DNA from: a virus
DNA length: 28,745 nt
Reading direction: 5' to 3' (one strand)
Virus genome (UHGV): UHGV-0139114
Shown here one piece after another: positions 6,516-26,187 of the stretch. The notes beneath the pieces were generated by a model. It did no database searches. It was not told the origin of the DNA and was given only the letters and a program-made list of their open reading frames with translations. The translations under genes and the position numbers were made by a program. The first letter of the stretch is position 1. Every line of letters starts with the position of its first letter.

Positions 6516-7457
6516 TTAAGTTAATTTTAATGAATGGTACTCTATCGAGCTGATTGTAGATGCGATATATTTACGATCATTTACAGAGAGTATTGCCGCT
6601 AGTAGACGACATACCAGAGCCTGCATTTGTAGCAATATATCGCTACCATATTGACAATCATTGATACTAGAGAAACCAAGCGGTTGCCCATTAAAAATGG
6701 CTTCATGAAAATTATCATTGCGTATAACTGAAACATTACATTCATCTGTTGCCCATGACGGGATTTTTACACCGTAATTTTCGCACATCCAATATACTCT
6801 ATTTTGATGAGATGGTTTTTTCTCTTTAATGACTTTATCCCTTTCATCCCATGCTATAGCAAAACAGCAATCAAGAGCCATATAAAGATACTGGAATTTC
6901 TCAAAGGAAAGGTATAGTGGGTTATGTGATAGGAATAGGGAGTGTATCACCGCAGCTATTCTTTTAATGGAGCGATCATCTTTTTGTTTGTCTTTTATAT
7001 AGTTAAGTGCTAGCTCTATTACTTCTTTTTCAGAGCATCCAACGAGAATAAAGTCAGTTAACTTAGTGGGCTTGATAGTGGTTGCATCAAGAAAACCAGC
7101 GTCAGTGGTTGTCAATCTTATACCCTTGAAAAAAGAGAGGCACCACACAACAAAGTTGAGAGTTTCTAACGAGGATGTGTTTTTTAATTTTAGTGTGTGC
7201 GTTTTGGGCATGCCGAATACTCGGTAACTATAAGGCATTGTGCATGTGTCACCATTAAGGTTATATACCTTTCGATTCCCAGGGTATATCCAACCATTAA
7301 CAACGTTTTTATCATTGTTAATACGTTCCACTTTCTCAATAAGACCGGGTAAAGTACGCAAAGAAAATTGTTCAGTCTCAATGTTAACTTCTACTGGATA
7401 GTATCCAAACTCCGAAATAATCTCATTTGGTTGCTGTTCATCAACTTCACCTTGCAT
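6516..7457 (-). CDS. Orphan 313-aa protein with an RNxxxH (HEPN-like) motif; candidate abortive-infection / defence nuclease
   Basis: Long ORF on the opposite strand to the surrounding phage genes in an AT-rich segment; GGAG 7 nt upstream of ATG 7457; motif RNDNFH at residues 246-251 (nt 6705-6722). Not a P2 gene that I recognise. Confidence 0.6.
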   Translation of the reverse strand: MQGEVDEQQPNEIISEFGYYPVEVNIETEQFSLRTLPGLIEKVERINNDKNVVNGWIYPGNRKVYNLNGDTCTMPYSYRVFGMPKTHTLKLKNTSSLETLNFVVWCLSFFKGIRLTTTDAGFLDATTIKPTKLTDFILVGCSEKEVIELALNYIKDKQKDDRSIKRIAAVIHSLFLSHNPLYLSFEKFQYLYMALDCCFAIAWDERDKVIKEKKPSHQNRVYWMCENYGVKIPSWATDECNVSVIRNDNFHEAIFNGQPLGFSSINDCQYGSDILLQMQALVCRLLAAILSVNDRKYIASTISSIEYHSLKLT

Positions 7458-18120: not shown

Positions 18121-19029
18121 ATGCCGATTATCGACCTGAACCAGCTACCCGCACCGGATGTGGTCGAGGAGCTGGACTTTGAAACCATTCTCGCCGAACG
18201 CAAGGCGACACTGATTTCCCTTTACCCGGAAGACCAGCAGGAGGCGGTCGCCCGTACCCTGACGCTGGAATCTGAGCCTCTCGTCAAACTGCTGGAGGAA
18301 AATGCTTATCGTGAGCTTATCTGGCGTCAGCGTGTGAATGAGGCTGCACGGGCGGTGATGCTGGCCTGTGCAGCCGGTAATGACCTTGATGTGATTGGTG
18401 CCAATTACAACACCACGCGCCTGATTATCACCCCGGCAGATGATTCGACCATCCCGCCGACACCGGCAGTGATGGAATCTGACACCGATTATCGTCTGCG
18501 TATTCAGCAGGCGTTTGAAGGTTTAAGCGTCGCCGGGTCGGTGGGTGCCTATCAGTATCATGGCCGCAGTGCCGACGGGCGTGTCGCGGATATCTCTGTC
18601 ACCAGTCCGTCTCCGGCCTGCGTCACCATCTCTGTGCTGTCACGTGAGAATAACGGTGTGGCATCCGAAGACCTGCTGGCGGTGGTGCGTAACGCCCTTA
18701 ATGGCGAGGACGTCAGACCGGTGGCCGACCGCGTGACCGTGCAGTCTGCTGCCATCGTTGAATACCAGATAAACGCCACGCTTTACCTTTACCCTGGTCC
18801 CGAAAGCGAACCCATCCGCGCGGCCGCCGTGAAAAAACTGGAAGCGTACATCACGGCACAGCACCGGCTGGGGCGCGACATCCGTCTGTCTGCCATTTAT
18901 GCCGCCTTGCATGTGGAAGGCGTGCAGCGTGTCGAGCTGGCCGCACCACTGGCCGACATTGTGCTCAACAGTACGCAGGCGTCTTTCTGTACCGAATACC
19001 GCGTCGTGACCGGAGGCTCGGATGAGTGA
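18121..19029 (+). CDS. J: Baseplate protein J
   Basis: 302 aa, position after W. Confidence 0.8.
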   Translation: MPIIDLNQLPAPDVVEELDFETILAERKATLISLYPEDQQEAVARTLTLESEPLVKLLEENAYRELIWRQRVNEAARAVMLACAAGNDLDVIGANYNTTRLIITPADDSTIPPTPAVMESDTDYRLRIQQAFEGLSVAGSVGAYQYHGRSADGRVADISVTSPSPACVTISVLSRENNGVASEDLLAVVRNALNGEDVRPVADRVTVQSAAIVEYQINATLYLYPGPESEPIRAAAVKKLEAYITAQHRLGRDIRLSAIYAALHVEGVQRVELAAPLADIVLNSTQASFCTEYRVVTGGSDE

Positions 19030-19552
19030 TTCGCGCCTGCTGCCGACCGGCTCATCGCCGCTTGAAGTTGCCGCCGCAAAAGCCTGTGCGGAAATTGAAA
19101 AAACGCCGGTCAGTATTCGTGAGCTGTGGAACCCGGATGCCTGTCCGGCAAATCTGCTGCCGTGGCTGGCGTGGGCGTTTTCGGTCGACAGGTGGGATGA
19201 AAAGTGGCCGGAAGCAACAAAACGCGCCGTTATCCGCGATGCGTATTTCATTCACTGCCATAAGGGCACTATAGGCGCAATCCGGCGTGTGGTGGAGCCG
19301 CTCGGCTATCTCATTAACGTAAAGGAATGGTGGGAGACAAACGACCCGCCCGGAACCTTTCGCCTTGATATCGGTGTGCTGGAAAGCGGCATCACGGAGG
19401 AGATGTATCTGGAAATGGAACGGCTTATTGCCGATGCCAAACCCGCAAGTCGCCACCTTATCGGTCTGAACATTATCCAGGACATTCCCGGCTGTCTGTA
19501 TACAGGCGGTGTGGTCTGTGATGGTGATGTTATTACTGTTTATCCCGGATAA
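19022..19552 (+). CDS. I: Baseplate / tail fibre attachment protein I
   Basis: 176 aa, overlapping the J stop. Confidence 0.8.
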   Translation: MSDSRLLPTGSSPLEVAAAKACAEIEKTPVSIRELWNPDACPANLLPWLAWAFSVDRWDEKWPEATKRAVIRDAYFIHCHKGTIGAIRRVVEPLGYLINVKEWWETNDPPGTFRLDIGVLESGITEEMYLEMERLIADAKPASRHLIGLNIIQDIPGCLYTGGVVCDGDVITVYPG

Positions 19553-19562
19553 GTGAGAAACA

Positions 19563-22298
19563 ATGAGCACGAAATTTAAAACCGTTATCACTACTGCCGG
19601 AGCCGCAAAGCTGGCAGCCGCCACTGTCCCCGGCGGGAAAAAAGTAACCCTGTCTGCAATGGCCGTGGGTGACGGTAATGGCAAATTGCCGGTGCCGGAT
19701 GCCGGTCAGACGAAACTGGTGCATGAGGTCTGGCGTCACGCTCTGAATAAAGTCAGCGTGGATAACAAGAATAAAAACTATATCGTGGCTGAACTGGTTG
19801 TACCGCCCGAAGTGGGCGGCTTCTGGATGCGTGAGCTTGGTCTGTATGACGATGCCGGAACACTGATTGCGGTCGCCAACATGGCAGAAAGCTATAAGCC
19901 TGAACTCGCTGAAGGCTCCGGGCGTGCGCAGACCTGCCGCATGGTTATTATTGTCAGTAACGTGGCGTCCGTTGAGCTGAGTATTGATGCCAGCACAGTG
20001 ATGGCGACGCAGGATTACGTCGATGACAAAATCGCAGAACATGAGCAGTCCCGCCGCCATCCTGACGCCACGCTGACAGAAAAAGGTTTTACCCAGTTAA
20101 GCAGCGCAACAAACAGCACCAGTGAAAAACTGGCGGCAACGCCAAAAGCGGTCAAGGCTGCGAATGACAACGCAAATTCACGTCTGGCGAAAAATAAGAA
20201 CGGTGCAGATATCCAGGATAAATCAGCTTTTCTGGACAATGTTGGCGTTACCAGCCTGACGTTTATGAAAAACAACGGCGAAATGCCGGTTGATGCTGAT
20301 CTGAATACATTTGGTCCAGTTAAGGCTTATCTGGGGATCTGGTCTAAAGCTACCTCAACTAACGCAACACTGGAGAAAAATTTCCCGGAAGATAATGCTG
20401 TCGGTGTGCTTGAGGTTTTTGCTGCCGGCAATTTTGCAGGCACGCAACGCTTTATCACGAGAGACGGCAATGTATACATGCGTAAACTCGCCAATAAGTG
20501 GAATGGTACTGATGGTCCATGGGGCGTATGGCGTCACACTCAATCAGCTACCCGCCCTTTGAGTACGACTATAGACCTGAATACGCTTGGAGCCGCCGAA
20601 CATCTTGGTTTATGGCGTAACAGTAGCTCGGCTATAGCTTCATATGAACGCAATTATCCAGAGGAAGGCGGCTTTGCTCAGGGGACGCTTGAGATCCTCG
20701 AAGGCGGGAATTATGGAAGAACGCAACGTTATACCACTCGCCGTGGAAATATGTATGTCCGCTGCCTTGCGGCAAGCTGGGATGCATCAAATCCGCAGTG
20801 GGAACCGTGGTTAAGAGTCGGTCATCAGTCAGAGAGTCGTTATTACGACGGGGATTTGAATGATGTGACTTCACCAGGTATTTACAGCGTTACAGGTAAA
20901 GCGACCAACGGTCCAGTACTGGACGGAAACGGCGTGACAGTCCTCGGTATTCTGGAAGTGTTGAGGCGCTTTGATGGTGTTAACGTATGGCAGCGTTATA
21001 CAACTGCCGGAACAGGTGCAACCCTTAAAGGTCGCACGTTTGAGCGCGTCTATACCGGCAGCTCGTGGAGCGAATGGCGGGAAGTCTACACCTCGTATTC
21101 ACTTCCCCTGAATCTGGGTATCGGCGGTGCAGTGGCAAAGCTCACCAGCCTGGACTGGCAGACCCACGACTTTGTGCCGGGCAGTCTGATAACCGTTCGG
21201 CTTGATAACATGACCAACATTCCCGACGGTATGGACTGGGGCGTCATTGATGGCAACCTGATAAACATCGCAGTTGGTCCGAGTGATGATTCCGGTACGG
21301 GGCGCTCAATGCATGTATGGCGCAGCACTGTAAGTAAAGCGAACTACCGCTTTTTTATGGTGCGTATTTCAGGAAATCCGGGAAGCCGCACGATTACAGC
21401 AAGACGAGTACCAATCATTGACGAAGCCCAGACATGGGGCGCGAAACAGACATTCAGTGCTGGCCTTTCTGGTGAACTGTCCGGCAATGCGGCGACAGCA
21501 ACAAAGCTGAAAACAGCCCGTAAAATTAATAACGTTTCGTTTGATGGAACATCAGATATTAACCTGACGCCGAAAAATATTGGTGCATTTGCTTCAGGAA
21601 AAACAGGAAACACCGTTGCGAATGATAAAGCCGTTGGATGGAACTGGAGTAGCGGAGCCTATAACGCAACTATTGGTGGGGCATCAACGTTAATTCTTCA
21701 TTTTAATATCGGTGAAGGAAGTTGTCCCGCCGCCCAGTTTCGCGTTAATTATAAGAACGGTGGTATTTTTTATCGTTCTGCTCGTGACGGTTACGGATTC
21801 GAGGCTGACTGGTCTGAGTTTTATACCACAACGCGAAAACCTACAGCGGGAGATGTCGGTGCACTGCCGTTATCTGGTGGTCAATTGAATGGTGCTCTGG
21901 GTATAGGAACATCCAGTGCTCTTGGCGGTAATTCGATTGTTTTGGGTGATAATGACACGGGCTTTAAACAAAATGGTGATGGTAATCTGGATGTTTATGC
22001 TAATAGCGTCCATGTTATGCGCTTTGTCTCCGGAAGCGTTCAAAGTAATAAAACCATAAATATTACGGGGCGTGTTAATCCCTCGGATTACGGTAACTTT
22101 GATTCCCGCTATGTGAGAGATGTCAGACTTGGCACACGTGTTGTTCAGACCATGCAAAAAGGCGTGATGTATGAAAAATCAGGTCATGTAATCACGGGGC
22201 TTGGTATTGTCGGTGAAGTCGATGGTGATGACCCGGCAGTATTCAGACCTGTTCAAAAATACATTAACGGAACATGGTATAACGTATCGCAGGTGTAA
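19563..22298 (+). CDS. H: Tail fibre protein H-like, extended (911 aa) with a mosaic C-terminal receptor-binding region
   Basis: N-terminus MSTKFKTVITTAGAAKLAAATVPGGKKVTLS matches P2 H as I recall it; longer than the ~670 aa I recall for P2 H; three internal tandem repeats. Confidence 0.85.
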   Translation: MSTKFKTVITTAGAAKLAAATVPGGKKVTLSAMAVGDGNGKLPVPDAGQTKLVHEVWRHALNKVSVDNKNKNYIVAELVVPPEVGGFWMRELGLYDDAGTLIAVANMAESYKPELAEGSGRAQTCRMVIIVSNVASVELSIDASTVMATQDYVDDKIAEHEQSRRHPDATLTEKGFTQLSSATNSTSEKLAATPKAVKAANDNANSRLAKNKNGADIQDKSAFLDNVGVTSLTFMKNNGEMPVDADLNTFGPVKAYLGIWSKATSTNATLEKNFPEDNAVGVLEVFAAGNFAGTQRFITRDGNVYMRKLANKWNGTDGPWGVWRHTQSATRPLSTTIDLNTLGAAEHLGLWRNSSSAIASYERNYPEEGGFAQGTLEILEGGNYGRTQRYTTRRGNMYVRCLAASWDASNPQWEPWLRVGHQSESRYYDGDLNDVTSPGIYSVTGKATNGPVLDGNGVTVLGILEVLRRFDGVNVWQRYTTAGTGATLKGRTFERVYTGSSWSEWREVYTSYSLPLNLGIGGAVAKLTSLDWQTHDFVPGSLITVRLDNMTNIPDGMDWGVIDGNLINIAVGPSDDSGTGRSMHVWRSTVSKANYRFFMVRISGNPGSRTITARRVPIIDEAQTWGAKQTFSAGLSGELSGNAATATKLKTARKINNVSFDGTSDINLTPKNIGAFASGKTGNTVANDKAVGWNWSSGAYNATIGGASTLILHFNIGEGSCPAAQFRVNYKNGGIFYRSARDGYGFEADWSEFYTTTRKPTAGDVGALPLSGGQLNGALGIGTSSALGGNSIVLGDNDTGFKQNGDGNLDVYANSVHVMRFVSGSVQSNKTINITGRVNPSDYGNFDSRYVRDVRLGTRVVQTMQKGVMYEKSGHVITGLGIVGEVDGDDPAVFRPVQKYINGTWYNVSQV
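20290..21095 (+). repeat. Three tandem, diverged protein-level repeats of about 90 aa inside the tail fibre gene
   Basis: Repeated pattern LNT.G ... G.LE. ... GN. ... TQR(F/Y).TR.GN.Y.R ... W... W..W in three consecutive blocks. Confidence 0.6.
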
Positions 22299-22301
22299 TT
22301 T

Positions 22302-22829
22302 ATGCAACACTTAAAAAACATTATTGCGGGAAATCCAAAAACGGTTGAGCAATATAAACTGACAAAGAATTTTGATGTTATCTGGTTATGGTCCGAAGAG
22401 GGAAAAAACTGGTATGAGGAAGTAAGTAATTTTCAGGAAGACACGATAAAGATTGTTTACGACGAGCATAATATTATTGTCGCCATCACCAAAGATGCCT
22501 CCACGCTTAACCCTGAAGGTTTTAGCGTTGTCGAGGTTCCTGATATTACCGCCAACCGACGTGCTGATGACTCAGGTAAATGGATGTTTAAGGATGGTGC
22601 TGTGATTAAGCGGATTTATACGGCAGACGAACAGCTGCAACTGGCAGAATCACAAAAGGCCGCGTTACTTTCCGAAACCGAATCCGTGATTTTGCCGCTG
22701 GAGCGCGCTGTCAGGCTGAATATGGCAACAGATGAGGAGCGCAGTCGACTGGAAGCATGGGAACGCTACAGCGTTCTGGTCAGTCGTGTGGATACTGCAA
22801 ATCCTGAATGGCCGGAAATGCCACAATAA
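22302..22829 (+). CDS. G: Tail fibre assembly chaperone G
   Basis: 175 aa immediately after H. Confidence 0.8.
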
Positions 22830-23019
22830 GTGATATGATCTCTTGTGTGAATTAACATAGCTATAGTACAGAGTAAAACCTAATCGGACAGTCCGCTCTG
22901 TGCCATTACCGGACATACTGAGCAGAAGGCTAAAAGAACGCTTTCAGGACATATAGCAAGGGAGCAGGGATGATAGAATTAACCCAGTATATTTAATGTT
23001 TCAATCATGATAGTTCCTG

Positions 23020-23047
23020 AATTAAAGGGGGGTATCCCCCTTTAATT
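23020..23047. terminator. Bidirectional hairpin terminator between convergent G and the 92-aa gene
   Basis: Perfect 12-bp stem AATTAAAGGGGG / CCCCCTTTAATT with loop GTAT; overlaps the stop codon of the minus-strand gene. Confidence 0.55.
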
Positions 23048-23324
23048 ACTTGTACCACTCAGTCTGAATTTGGTTACTAACTTCATCTGGGAGATTGTAC
23101 CAATAAGCTGAGTTATTGGTTGCGTCTACAACAATAAGCTTATCATCACTATCCATAACCGCCCTCACAATTTTGGCTGCATCCTCGGCAGAGTAACTAC
23201 AGTTAACATACCAGTTCGATTCAGTTGTTAAAGCCCAATTTCCTAAAGATTTAATCGCATTATACACAGCCGCATAATCTTTCGTTTTAATGAGGTCGTA
23301 AGTAATAAATAAATTATTGGCCAT
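23046..23324 (-). CDS. Hypothetical 92-aa protein (cargo)
   Basis: ORF with GGGAG 8 nt upstream of the ATG, in an AT-rich island; no family recognised. Confidence 0.55.
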   Translation of the reverse strand: MANNLFITYDLIKTKDYAAVYNAIKSLGNWALTTESNWYVNCSYSAEDAAKIVRAVMDSDDKLIVVDATNNSAYWYNLPDEVSNQIQTEWYK

Positions 23325-23343
23325 AAATCATCTCCCAAAGGGC

Positions 23344-23370
23344 AAAGAAAAAAGCGCCTAGAAAGGCGCT
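23344..23370 (-). terminator. Rho-independent terminator between the DUF3606 gene and the 92-aa gene
   Basis: Stem AGCGCCT / AGGCGCT (23353-23359, 23364-23370), loop AGAA; on the minus strand it is followed by TTTTTTCTTT. Confidence 0.6.
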
Positions 23371-23376
23371 CATATA

Positions 23377-23595
23377 TTAATGGTCTTTAAGCCATGCCTG
23401 TACTTTCTTAGCCGAATGACCTACAGCCTGTACGGCTTGAACAAGTTTGGCCTCGCTAACTCCAAACTTTTCAGCCCAATCACGTCTTTCGTAATCCTGT
23501 TTGATACTTATTAAATCATTGTCAGGGGTACCGATTTTGGTCTTATCATCAGCCATTTTACTGATTCCTCGTGATACAGGCTTATACCTGCCCAT
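23377..23595 (-). CDS. DUF3606-like small protein (alternative start at ATG 23556 giving 59 aa)
   Basis: Pattern DYERRDWAEKFGVSEAKLVQAVQAVGHS resembles DUF3606 family members as I remember them; both candidate starts have an SD. Confidence 0.55.
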   Translation of the reverse strand: MGRYKPVSRGISKMADDKTKIGTPDNDLISIKQDYERRDWAEKFGVSEAKLVQAVQAVGHSAKKVQAWLKDH

Positions 23596-24043
23596 TAGTT
23601 ATATGGCTCCCGTGCCGCTTCGTAAACGTTCAATAATCAAACAATTGACACTGATCATAAAACCAGTTAAAGGATTTGACTCTACCTTGGATATATGATG
23701 CCACCCCCTTTATATTGTTGTCGGTAACTCACAGGCATTGAACTCATGCTGGTGAGTGAAAGGCCACATAAACGCCCAATATTTAAACTGCCCTCAGCAG
23801 CGTTCGCGGAGCAATATACAGGCTTCGTATTCAATCCTTGCCCTACGAGAAACCCTAGCCGCAACCTCGTTTTCAAGTGTCAGTAAGTTCTTTGTCAGAC
23901 CTCATACAGTTTTAAGCTGGGTGAGGTGCATGGGGGAAGTTGAAGCCTTAACTGTTGAGGTAAATCGAACCATAAGTGTGCAATTTTTCAAGCCCGGCGC
24001 TATTTTAGTCTTGAAAACAATTAGTACGCCCCAAGGACAACTC

Positions 24044-24736
24044 ATGATCGAATTTATCGCAGAGCATATAAACACAGTAAGCACACTTATCTCCGCTTTG
24101 GCTGCATTGCTAACAGCAGTTGCTACATTTTTCTTGTGGAGAGTAACAAGGCTATTAGCAGACGAGACAAAAAGGATGGTTGACGCATCAGTTCAACCTC
24201 ACGTCGTTGTGACTCTTGAACCAAATTCTTGGGCTGCTTTTTATTTTGATATCAATATTGCTAATACCGGAAATGCCCCAGCCTATGATATTGAAATCGG
24301 ATTTAATCCCCCACTGGTAAATGCAGAACATAGAAAAAATAAAGGTATACCATTTAGCAAGGTTAGCGTATTGAAAAACGGCCATTCGCTCAACAGCAGT
24401 CTTTGTAAGTATGAACAGATTAAAGATCAAGTTTATACTGTTAGTATTAGTTGGTCTAAACAGCCGGGCTCAACTGAAAGAGAGCGGAATGAGTATTCTT
24501 ATGATATGGCTTCTTTCGAGGGGGTTAGCTACTTAGGTGCAAGGAGTCCAATGACACAGATAGCCGAGCAGGTGAAAAAGATTAGAGAAGACTGGAGGCC
24601 GATTTCCCAGGGAAGCAAAAAAATTAAAACAGACAACTATAATTCAAGTGACAGAGCCGAGGAACAACGAGCACGTGAAGAGTGGTATCAGACCACTGCA
24701 AAGAAATGGGATAAAGAAAAGCAAAAAGATAACTAA
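24044..24736 (+). CDS. Membrane-anchored protein of about 230 aa (cargo); candidate superinfection-exclusion / abortive-infection protein. Alternative start at ATG 23930.
   Basis: AAGGA 6 nt upstream of ATG 24044; predicted single N-terminal transmembrane helix TVSTLISALAALLTAVATFFLW, then a beta-rich domain and a K/E-rich tail; AT-rich; occupies the Z/fun locus. Confidence 0.55.
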   Translation: MIEFIAEHINTVSTLISALAALLTAVATFFLWRVTRLLADETKRMVDASVQPHVVVTLEPNSWAAFYFDINIANTGNAPAYDIEIGFNPPLVNAEHRKNKGIPFSKVSVLKNGHSLNSSLCKYEQIKDQVYTVSISWSKQPGSTERERNEYSYDMASFEGVSYLGARSPMTQIAEQVKKIREDWRPISQGSKKIKTDNYNSSDRAEEQRAREEWYQTTAKKWDKEKQKDN

Positions 24737-24871
24737 TACAATTGACCTGCTCCCCATAAATTAGCATACCACAATCTCAGGTCCGCTCTTCGCTCAAAAC
24801 AGGCTGTCAGATTTGACAGAATTTTGGTTACGTAATTTATCAGTTGGAAAATGAGTGAGTACAAATCAGGA

Positions 24872-24900
24872 CAGGCGGGCGAATAGCCTGCCTTTTCTTT
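24872..24900 (+). terminator. Possible weak terminator after the cargo gene, before the FI promoter region
   Basis: Short stem CAGGC / GCCTG with a 9-nt loop followed by CCTTTTCTTT. Confidence 0.3.
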
Positions 24901-24996
24901 ATCTGTTGTTTCATCCACTGACCAGCCAGGTCAAATAGCGTCTCATGCACTACCCAACAGAAAATAGTTGCACCCATTAACCACGGAGTTAAACGG

Positions 24997-26187
24997 ATGA
25001 GTGACTATCATCATGGCGTGCAGGTGCTGGAGATTAACGACGGCACCCGCGTCATTTCCACTGTATCCACGGCCATTGTCGGCATGGTCTGCACGGCCAG
25101 CGATGCGGATGCGGAAACCTTCCCCCTCAATAAACCGGTGCTGATTACCAATGTGCAGAGCGCAATTGCAAAGGCCGGTAAAAAAGGCACGCTGGCGGCA
25201 TCGTTGCAGGCCATCGCCGACCAGTCAAAACCGGTCACCGTTGTCGTGCGTGTGGAAGACGGCACCGGCGACGACGAGGAAACGAAACTCGCGCAGACCG
25301 TTTCCAATATCATCGGCACCACCGACGAAAATGGTCAGTACACCGGACTGAAAGCCCTGCTGGCGGCGGAGTCGGTAACCGGTGTTAAACCGCGTATTCT
25401 CGGTGTGCCGGGACTGGACACCAAAGAGGTGGCTGTTGCACTGGCATCAGTCTGTCAGAAGCTGCGCGCTTTCGGGTATATCAGCGCATGGGACTGTAAA
25501 ACCATTTCCGAGGTGAAAGCCTACCGTCAGAATTTCAGCCAGCGTGAGCTGATGGTCATCTGGCCGGATTTCCTCGCATGGGATACGGTCAGCAGTACCA
25601 CCGCCACCGCGTATGCCACCGCCCGTGCGCTGGGTCTGCGCGCTAAAATCGACCAGGAGCAGGGCTGGCATAAAACGCTGTCCAATGTCGGGGTGAACGG
25701 TGTTACCGGCATCAGCGCATCCGTCTTCTGGGATTTGCAGGAGTCCGGCACCGATGCTGACCTGCTTAACGAGTCAGGCGTCACTACGCTGATTCGCCGC
25801 GACGGTTTCCGCTTCTGGGGTAACCGTACCTGCTCTGATGACCCGCTGTTCCTCTTTGAAAACTACACCCGCACCGCGCAGGTACTGGCTGACACGATGG
25901 CTGAGGCGCACATGTGGGCGGTGGACAAGCCCATCACCGCAACGCTGATTCGCGACATCGTTGACGGCATCAATGCCAAATTCCGTGAGCTGAAAACAAA
26001 CGGCTATATCGTGGATGCGACCTGCTGGTTCAGCGAAGAATCCAACGATGCGGAAACCCTCAAGGCCGGAAAACTGTATATCGACTACGACTATACACCG
26101 GTGCCTCCTCTTGAAAACCTGACCCTGCGCCAGCGTATTACCGATAAATACCTGGCAAATCTGGTCACCTCGGTTAACAGCAATTAA
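24997..26187 (+). CDS. FI: Tail sheath protein FI
   Basis: 396 aa, begins MSDYHHGVQVLEINDGTRVIS; position before the tube gene. Confidence 0.9.
   Translation: MSDYHHGVQVLEINDGTRVISTVSTAIVGMVCTASDADAETFPLNKPVLITNVQSAIAKAGKKGTLAASLQAIADQSKPVTVVVRVEDGTGDDEETKLAQTVSNIIGTTDENGQYTGLKALLAAESVTGVKPRILGVPGLDTKEVAVALASVCQKLRAFGYISAWDCKTISEVKAYRQNFSQRELMVIWPDFLAWDTVSSTTATAYATARALGLRAKIDQEQGWHKTLSNVGVNGVTGISASVFWDLQESGTDADLLNESGVTTLIRRDGFRFWGNRTCSDDPLFLFENYTRTAQVLADTMAEAHMWAVDKPITATLIRDIVDGINAKFRELKTNGYIVDATCWFSEESNDAETLKAGKLYIDYDYTPVPPLENLTLRQRITDKYLANLVTSVNSN

Follow-up and report, generated by a model that had tools for sequence, protein, structure and literature searches.

The question raised by this locus is why the tail fibre gene of a P2-like prophage is enlarged by a repetitive middle, where that middle belongs, and what it might do for the phage. 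The window analysed here (the whole 28,745-nt stretch of virus genome UHGV-0139114) is a P2-like prophage that runs from integrase to tape-measure genes, and the Escherichia coli KC-Dl-1 chromosome (NZ_CP063046.1) was 100% identical to it over the 6.2-kb stretch tested (19000-25200). The product of its gene H is identical to RefSeq WP_154298440.1 of the same strain. The gene was assigned to the P2-type H by its N-terminal PF12571 domain, by its slot in a V-W-J-I-H-G operon (V-W-J-I upstream and G downstream, as in P2) and by the Caudo_TAP chaperone gene next to it. It very probably encodes the tail fibre of a P2-like (Peduovirus) prophage, a long mosaic of the L-413C type with three tandem knob domains that were duplicated anciently, are exchanged as cassettes and would make lateral contacts with glycans. 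What was computed here comprises the gene, its repeats and their fold, the breakpoints of the mosaic and the way the alleles vary; both the H allele type and the knob domain type are already known. The coordinates of all features are given in Table 1.

Table 1. Features of gene H and of the region downstream of it, with positions in the window; ranges given in aa refer to residues of the H protein.
Feature	Position	Strand	Basis
Gene H, tail fibre, 911 aa (stop codon included)	19563..22298	+	ORF list, operon position, 100% match and annotation in NZ_CP063046.1
Tail-collar fibre domain, N-terminal, baseplate attachment, P2-like (aa 1-151)	19563..20015	+	Pfam PF12571, E=8e-58; mean identity of 97% across 8 alleles
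Phage tail fibre repeat (aa 170-211), also in Mu S	20070..20195	+	Pfam PF03406, E=1e-20; alignment with residues 110-173 of Mu S/S'
Knob domain 1 (aa 244-337)	20292..20573	+	Unit HMM E=1e-38; five strands in AF2 model; structural hits to pyocin fibres
Knob domain 2 (aa 338-430), the best conserved knob	20574..20852	+	Unit HMM E=3e-40; 41% identity to knob 1; allele identity mean 0.79, minimum 0.63
Knob domain 3 (aa 431-517), the knob with the highest divergence and variability; cassette exchanged with respect to vB_YpM_50	20853..21113	+	
Domain without assigned fold (aa 518-640), in the central block that varies relative to L-413C	21114..21482	+	AF2 pLDDT <40; 63-80% identity to L-413C
Distal third, low GC (aa 641-911): gp37_C domain resembling Mu S' (aa 672-768), then a C-terminus resembling P2 H and Mu S (aa 775-911)	21483..22295	+	Pfam PF12604, PF20744; PDB 8ju3, 5yvq, 6f45 by sequence
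Gene G, tail fibre assembly chaperone, 175 aa	22302..22829	+	Pfam PF02413 Caudo_TAP, E=9e-34; same position as P2 G
Hypothetical protein, 92 aa	23046-23324	-	RefSeq annotation
DUF3606 protein	~23377-23556	-	RefSeq annotation
Hypothetical protein, 268 aa	~23930-24736	+	RefSeq annotation

Elsewhere in the prophage, two slots correspond to variable hotspots of P2. The region between G and the sheath gene FI (22830-24996) is low in GC (0.41), holds three small genes according to RefSeq and was found in one of 5426 complete E. coli genomes. The same slot, a known anti-phage defence hotspot of P2, holds Shedu, DUF3800 and other genes in other P2-like prophages. The two larger ORFs of the cargo gave no match in Pfam or PADLOC, and the cargo is possibly an uncharacterised defence or moron cassette. 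The other slot, which corresponds to old/tin in P2, where it is the second variable hotspot, is flanked by the replication gene A region and the portal gene Q and is occupied here by an ORF of 313 aa (6516-7457, minus strand) that likewise had no match in Pfam or PADLOC.

A previous reading of the letters and their open reading frames (the sequence-only reading hereafter) had set the 911 aa of H against roughly 670 aa for P2, and the canonical P2 protein (NC_001895, NP_046775.1) is indeed 669 aa long. In BLASTP comparisons aa 1-207 of H were 85% identical to P2 H, which bears out the P2-like N-terminus claimed before, and aa 775-911 aligned to P2 H 477-669 across a 56-aa gap that corresponds to 56 extra residues in the C-terminal part of the P2 protein. 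No P2 H counterpart was found for aa 208-774, and the middle of the P2 protein (P2 aa 208-476) is unrelated to H. The two phages thus have the N-terminal 207 aa, a homologous C-terminus, the gene order and the G chaperone in common, and differ in the middle of the fibre; a scan of P2 H with the unit HMM described below detected no knob units. The alignment of fibres that had been proposed as a check placed the breakpoints after aa 207 and before aa 775, and P2-like ends around a non-P2 stretch lend support to the recombinant receptor-binding region that had been suspected. Both breakpoints coincide with those published for the GpH protein of Yersinia phage L-413C, in which the P2-like parts are 207 aa at the N-terminus and 137 aa at the C-terminus (Garcia et al., 2008, cited after PMC7460101), and H was accordingly classified as an L-413C-type allele. 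Judged by these alignments, H is a recombinant mosaic whose 567-aa middle is of different origin from its P2-like ends.

The GC content of H is 0.536 in aa 1-211, 0.505 in the knobs, 0.53 in aa 512-640 and 0.444 in aa 641-911, compared with 0.451 in G and 0.522 in the whole window. The lower GC that had been noticed in the distal part was therefore found again in aa 641-911, but the knobs are not the low-GC part of the gene, so that, within the mosaic, the GC drop and the repeats have to be regarded as two distinct features. Within the low-GC third the gp37_C domain was located by Pfam at aa 679-754; strong similarity to Mu S' extends over aa 672-768 and to Mu S over aa 835-909. The N-terminus of the Mu tail fibre S/S' (PDB 8JU3, 5YVQ) is different from that of H. 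Mu alternates between S and S' by inversion of its G segment.

Three consecutive tandem units of ~81-93 aa lie in residues ~244-517 of H (nt 20292-21113), where the sequence-only reading had placed three diverged repeats at 20290-21095 (aa 243-511). An HMM built from the units recognised three copies in H, at aa 244-337, 336-430, and 429-517. Self-BLASTP of the full-length protein, corresponding to the self-comparison proposed earlier, returned the identity match alone, and the units had to be cut out for comparison. Units 1 and 2 were 41% identical over 78 aa (BLASTP of the cut-out units, E ~1e-19 to 1e-22), their Smith-Waterman score was 180 versus 26±5 for shuffled sequences (z=32; none of 2000 shuffles scored as high), and hhalign gave P=1e-27. 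Pairwise comparisons of unit 3 with units 1 and 2 were marginal (z=2.8 and 1.8, the score being reached by 27 and 119 of 2000 shuffles, respectively; ~20-25% identity; BLASTP E=0.016-0.13).

Because of these weak pairwise scores one might accept only two real repeats and regard the third unit as an unrelated domain that is of similar length by chance. We consider this very improbable. Unit 3 aligns in register with units 1 and 2 with profile-profile P-values of 2e-4 and 1.4e-3 (hhalign), and 12 columns are identical across all three units, including DLN at each start and LE..QR..T in the core. By sequence, unit 3 is a remote relative of units 1 and 2 that has the same predicted fold, a relationship supported by profile and structure, not by pairwise similarity. 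The three consecutive diverged repeats reported for H were thereby recovered by unit HMM, Smith-Waterman, hhalign and fold, unit 3 being the weak one in pairwise comparison, and the repeats, which had been counted as part of the extra length, add up to ~270 aa, roughly the excess of H over P2 H.

At the DNA level the traces of repetition were faint (spacings of 279, 276, and 267 nt, copies at most 71% identical over 51 nt), and Tandem Repeats Finder reported no relevant repeat in the DNA. From this we conclude that the units were duplicated long ago and did not arise in assembly. Apart from the tandem layout itself, nothing speaks for a recent duplication or an artefact peculiar to this copy of H, and we regard that explanation as already refuted by the divergence of the DNA copies and the empty Tandem Repeats Finder result, by the same three-unit architecture in seven independent phage genomes, and by the occurrence of the repeat region in 347 of 5426 complete E. 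coli genomes (with a coverage of at least 80% in 264).

No Pfam or NCBIfam model matched the repeats, and PHROGs matches were limited to generic tail-fibre families. In the databases, fragments that match the repeat region at 77-98% identity have been named 'pyocin knob domain-containing protein' by NCBI, and the curated model behind this name is presumably a CDD model. AlphaFold2 (AF2) modelling of aa 226-668 gave a pLDDT of 50-86 over the three units (10-residue block means), and unit 3 modelled alone reached a pLDDT of 84.7. DSSP assigned five main strands to each unit in the AF2 models, with matching offsets in all three. When the PDB was searched with Foldseek, the R1/R2 pyocin fibres 6CL5 and 6CL6 ranked at the top (E ~2e-6), followed by proteins of Phi11 (gp45), phi812, and P68. 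As modelled, the unit conforms to a pyocin knob, which is defined by a length of ~80-95 aa and by a sheet of five or six antiparallel beta-strands with connecting loops, and it superposes on the solved pyocin knobs clearly above background. The pyocin knob domain was defined structurally in 2018, as Knob1 and Knob2 of R-type pyocin fibres (Buth et al., 2018, PMC6116203), and Phi11 gp45, phage K gp144, T4 gp34, and AS12 gp42 were listed there as having knob-like domains (PMC6116203). From the NCBI names, the five-strand models, the Foldseek matches to pyocins and this list taken together it follows that the repeat array, on model evidence, is a series of three tandem knob domains. The structure prediction suggested for the repeat unit thus returned a five-stranded pyocin-knob fold in all three units (AF2 monomer models).

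The R1/R2 pyocin fibres of Pseudomonas aeruginosa (PDB 6CL5, 6CL6, 6CU2) have two knobs as opposed to three in H, with a sequence identity of 14-19%, and end in a distal iron-containing shaft with a lectin foot, whereas the distal part of H is Mu S'/P2 H-like. The receptor-binding proteins of Staphylococcus phages (Phi11 gp45, 5EFV; phage K gp144, 5M9F; phi812, 9EUF), T4 gp34 (5NXH) and AS12 gp42 (6EU4) contain knob-like domains but are unrelated proteins overall, and no sequence similarity of H to any of these five was detectable. Downstream of the array, aa 518-640 were unrelated to the knob profiles, and no solved relatives were found by sequence; the hhalign values (P=0.14-0.46) led us to dismiss a possible fourth, degenerate knob at aa 512-645. 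The mean identity of this domain (21114-21482) is 0.90 among most alleles, and it is diverged in L-413C. Since the AlphaFold monomer model is poor here, the domain may be an intertwined trimeric segment.

The phages with the nearest H alleles had Yersinia pestis and E. coli as isolation hosts. At least 80% of H was covered by 28 phage records, and over its full length the gene is 95.8% identical in nucleotide sequence to H of Yersinia phage vB_YpM_50 (YpM50); a literature search on the tail fibres of the vB_YpM P2-like phages gave nothing useful. The fibres of L-413C (GpH, AAP04455.1, 913 aa), YpM50, vB_YpM_22 (YpM22), vB_EcoM-569R9 (569R9), P24B2, and phage 899 share with H the operon position, a length of 909-919 aa, the P2-like N-terminus of 207 aa, the C-terminus of 137 aa, three knobs at the same positions, and a nearly identical stretch at aa 641-850. 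Overall amino acid identity to H is 96.6% for YpM50 and 80.8% for L-413C (97-100% in the flanks), and the unit HMM counted exactly three copies each in H and in these two fibres. A search of 1.84 billion cluster representatives yielded 220 proteins with E ≤1e-3. Among the 149 newly listed representatives, the 143 with at least one full-length unit carried one unit in 55 cases, two in 51, three in 28, four in 8, and six in one. Given these counts and its occurrence in E. coli, the three-knob array is unremarkable. The cluster representative P0042 (1300 aa) has six knob units in two blocks of three (aa 217-488 and 721-991), which suggests from sequence that a three-knob block may be duplicated as a whole. 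In the E. coli genomes 34 of the 413 knob-region matches were located on plasmids, so that the knob cassette may also circulate in the tail fibres of phage-plasmids.

Eight full-length alleles were compared for variation along the protein (UHGV-0139114 H, L-413C, YpM50, YpM22, 569R9, P24B2, phage 899, and PhiR44_2). The mean pairwise identity was 0.97 in aa 1-211, 0.99 in aa 641-774 and 0.98 in aa 775-850, and 0.76, 0.79, and 0.70 in knobs 1, 2, and 3, respectively. YpM50 and YpM22 differ from UHGV-0139114 H almost only in knob 3, with a nucleotide identity of 68-79% over 20853-21122, 89% over the next 90 nt and ~100% on both sides. In 569R9 the differences fall in knobs 1-2, in L-413C they span the whole block of aa 221-640, and in PhiR44_2 they are restricted to the extreme C-terminus. 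The divergent knob patches had a dS of 1-3 or saturated compared with 0-0.15 in the flanks, and their dN/dS was 0.08-0.17 in most comparisons and 0.32 at the highest. Because the patches are separate, dS is saturated and dN/dS is 0.1-0.17, we ascribe the differences to cassette exchange and not to recent point mutation. Positive selection as the source of knob diversity was rejected on the same values (dN/dS 0.1-0.17 with saturated dS); these rates point to purifying selection within each cassette lineage, with no signal of ongoing positive selection. The pattern indicates that the knobs are old, purified allelic lineages that recombination has moved as separately exchangeable cassettes. The extreme C-terminus (H aa ~851-911, 22113-22298) is a second, independent swap point: PhiR44_2 and the phages that match only nt 1-2552 of H have a different tip, with 37-57% identity over aa 841-900.

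As for function, the knobs are likely lateral glycan-binding or orienting beads on the fibre. Each knob is, as modelled, a small antiparallel five-stranded beta-sheet unit, and three copies would pack round the trimer axis as a globular bead with the variable loops pointing outward, an arrangement taken from the pyocin fibres since our models are monomeric. The three units stem from an ancient duplication and now behave as separately exchangeable pieces in H alleles that are nearly identical elsewhere. With chaperone G assisting its folding, the conserved tip would make the primary contact with the LPS core, while the knobs would add lateral, allele-specific contacts with surface saccharides and so tune the host range; as in the model for pyocin Knob2, such contacts may also fix the angle of the fibre for triggering of the baseplate. 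Trimeric packing, saccharide binding and an effect on host range are thus what we infer in addition to the computed features. A lateral glycan-contact role is argued for by pyocin Knob2, which is the most diverse region of that fibre and a proposed LPS binder (PMC6116203), by the knob-like prism of K1F, which binds sialic acid (PMC6116203), and by Pseudomonas phages, in which variation in the knob region has been linked to host range. For the pyocin knobs, saccharide binding is itself a proposal (PMC6116203). The altered host range that the sequence-only reading had considered possible is plausible for the mosaic H because its nearest alleles are found in phages of Y. pestis and E. coli and because of the parallel with L-413C, whose GpH was shown to bind Y. 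pestis cells and whose mosaic was proposed to explain its host specificity (PMC7460101).

The knobs could, instead, be purely structural beads that lengthen and stiffen the fibre and nucleate trimer folding, with the distal third and the tip alone setting the host range. Phage P88 provides the sole host-range mapping that we found for a P2-like coliphage, and its determinant, at aa 716-746, is near the C-terminus of the P2-type fibre, so that the knobs could be mainly structural; P88 has a different H allele type, and the P88/pro147 result was for this reason rejected as a direct map for H. A structural role would also agree with the suggestion of Buth et al. that knob-like domains are important in the folding of trimeric proteins (PMC6116203), with a dN/dS of 0.1-0.17, which amounts to ordinary purifying selection, and with the 12 columns that all units share, the first 10 of which fit core positions of a fold scaffold. 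However, the knobs are the main hotspot of diversity while the tip (aa 641-850) is 98-99% identical across alleles of phages with different hosts, and their cassettes have been replaced one by one from lineages that are deeply diverged, neither of which one would predict for spacers; moreover, the equivalent knob of pyocins and Pseudomonas phages is the region linked to specificity. We therefore hold a purely structural role to be rather unlikely and retain lateral, allele-specific contacts as the preferred function of the knobs.

Lateral contacts may be taken further to a combinatorial specificity code, in which the three knobs would be independent, exchangeable glycan-binding modules and their combination, not the near-invariant tip, would decide which Enterobacterales surfaces are usable. 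Such a code, which we put forward as a doubtful idea only, could for example separate the rough LPS of Y. pestis from particular cores or O-antigens of E. coli.

Taken alone the finding matters little, as the protein is in RefSeq, L-413C has been known since 2008 to have a long mosaic H, and the structural definition of the knob dates from 2018. Its modest use lies in locating the diversity of this allele family almost entirely in three knobs from deeply diverged lineages, next to a tip that is nearly invariant. The knobs are therefore the first place to look for differences in host range among phages of the L-413C type, which are used in plague diagnostics and in the retargeting of pyocins, and the H proteins of UHGV-0139114 and vB_YpM_50 make up a natural pair that differs by the swap of a single knob. 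If the combinatorial code were true, nature would offer in this type of fibre a plug-and-play scaffold by which P2-like phages and pyocins could be retargeted.
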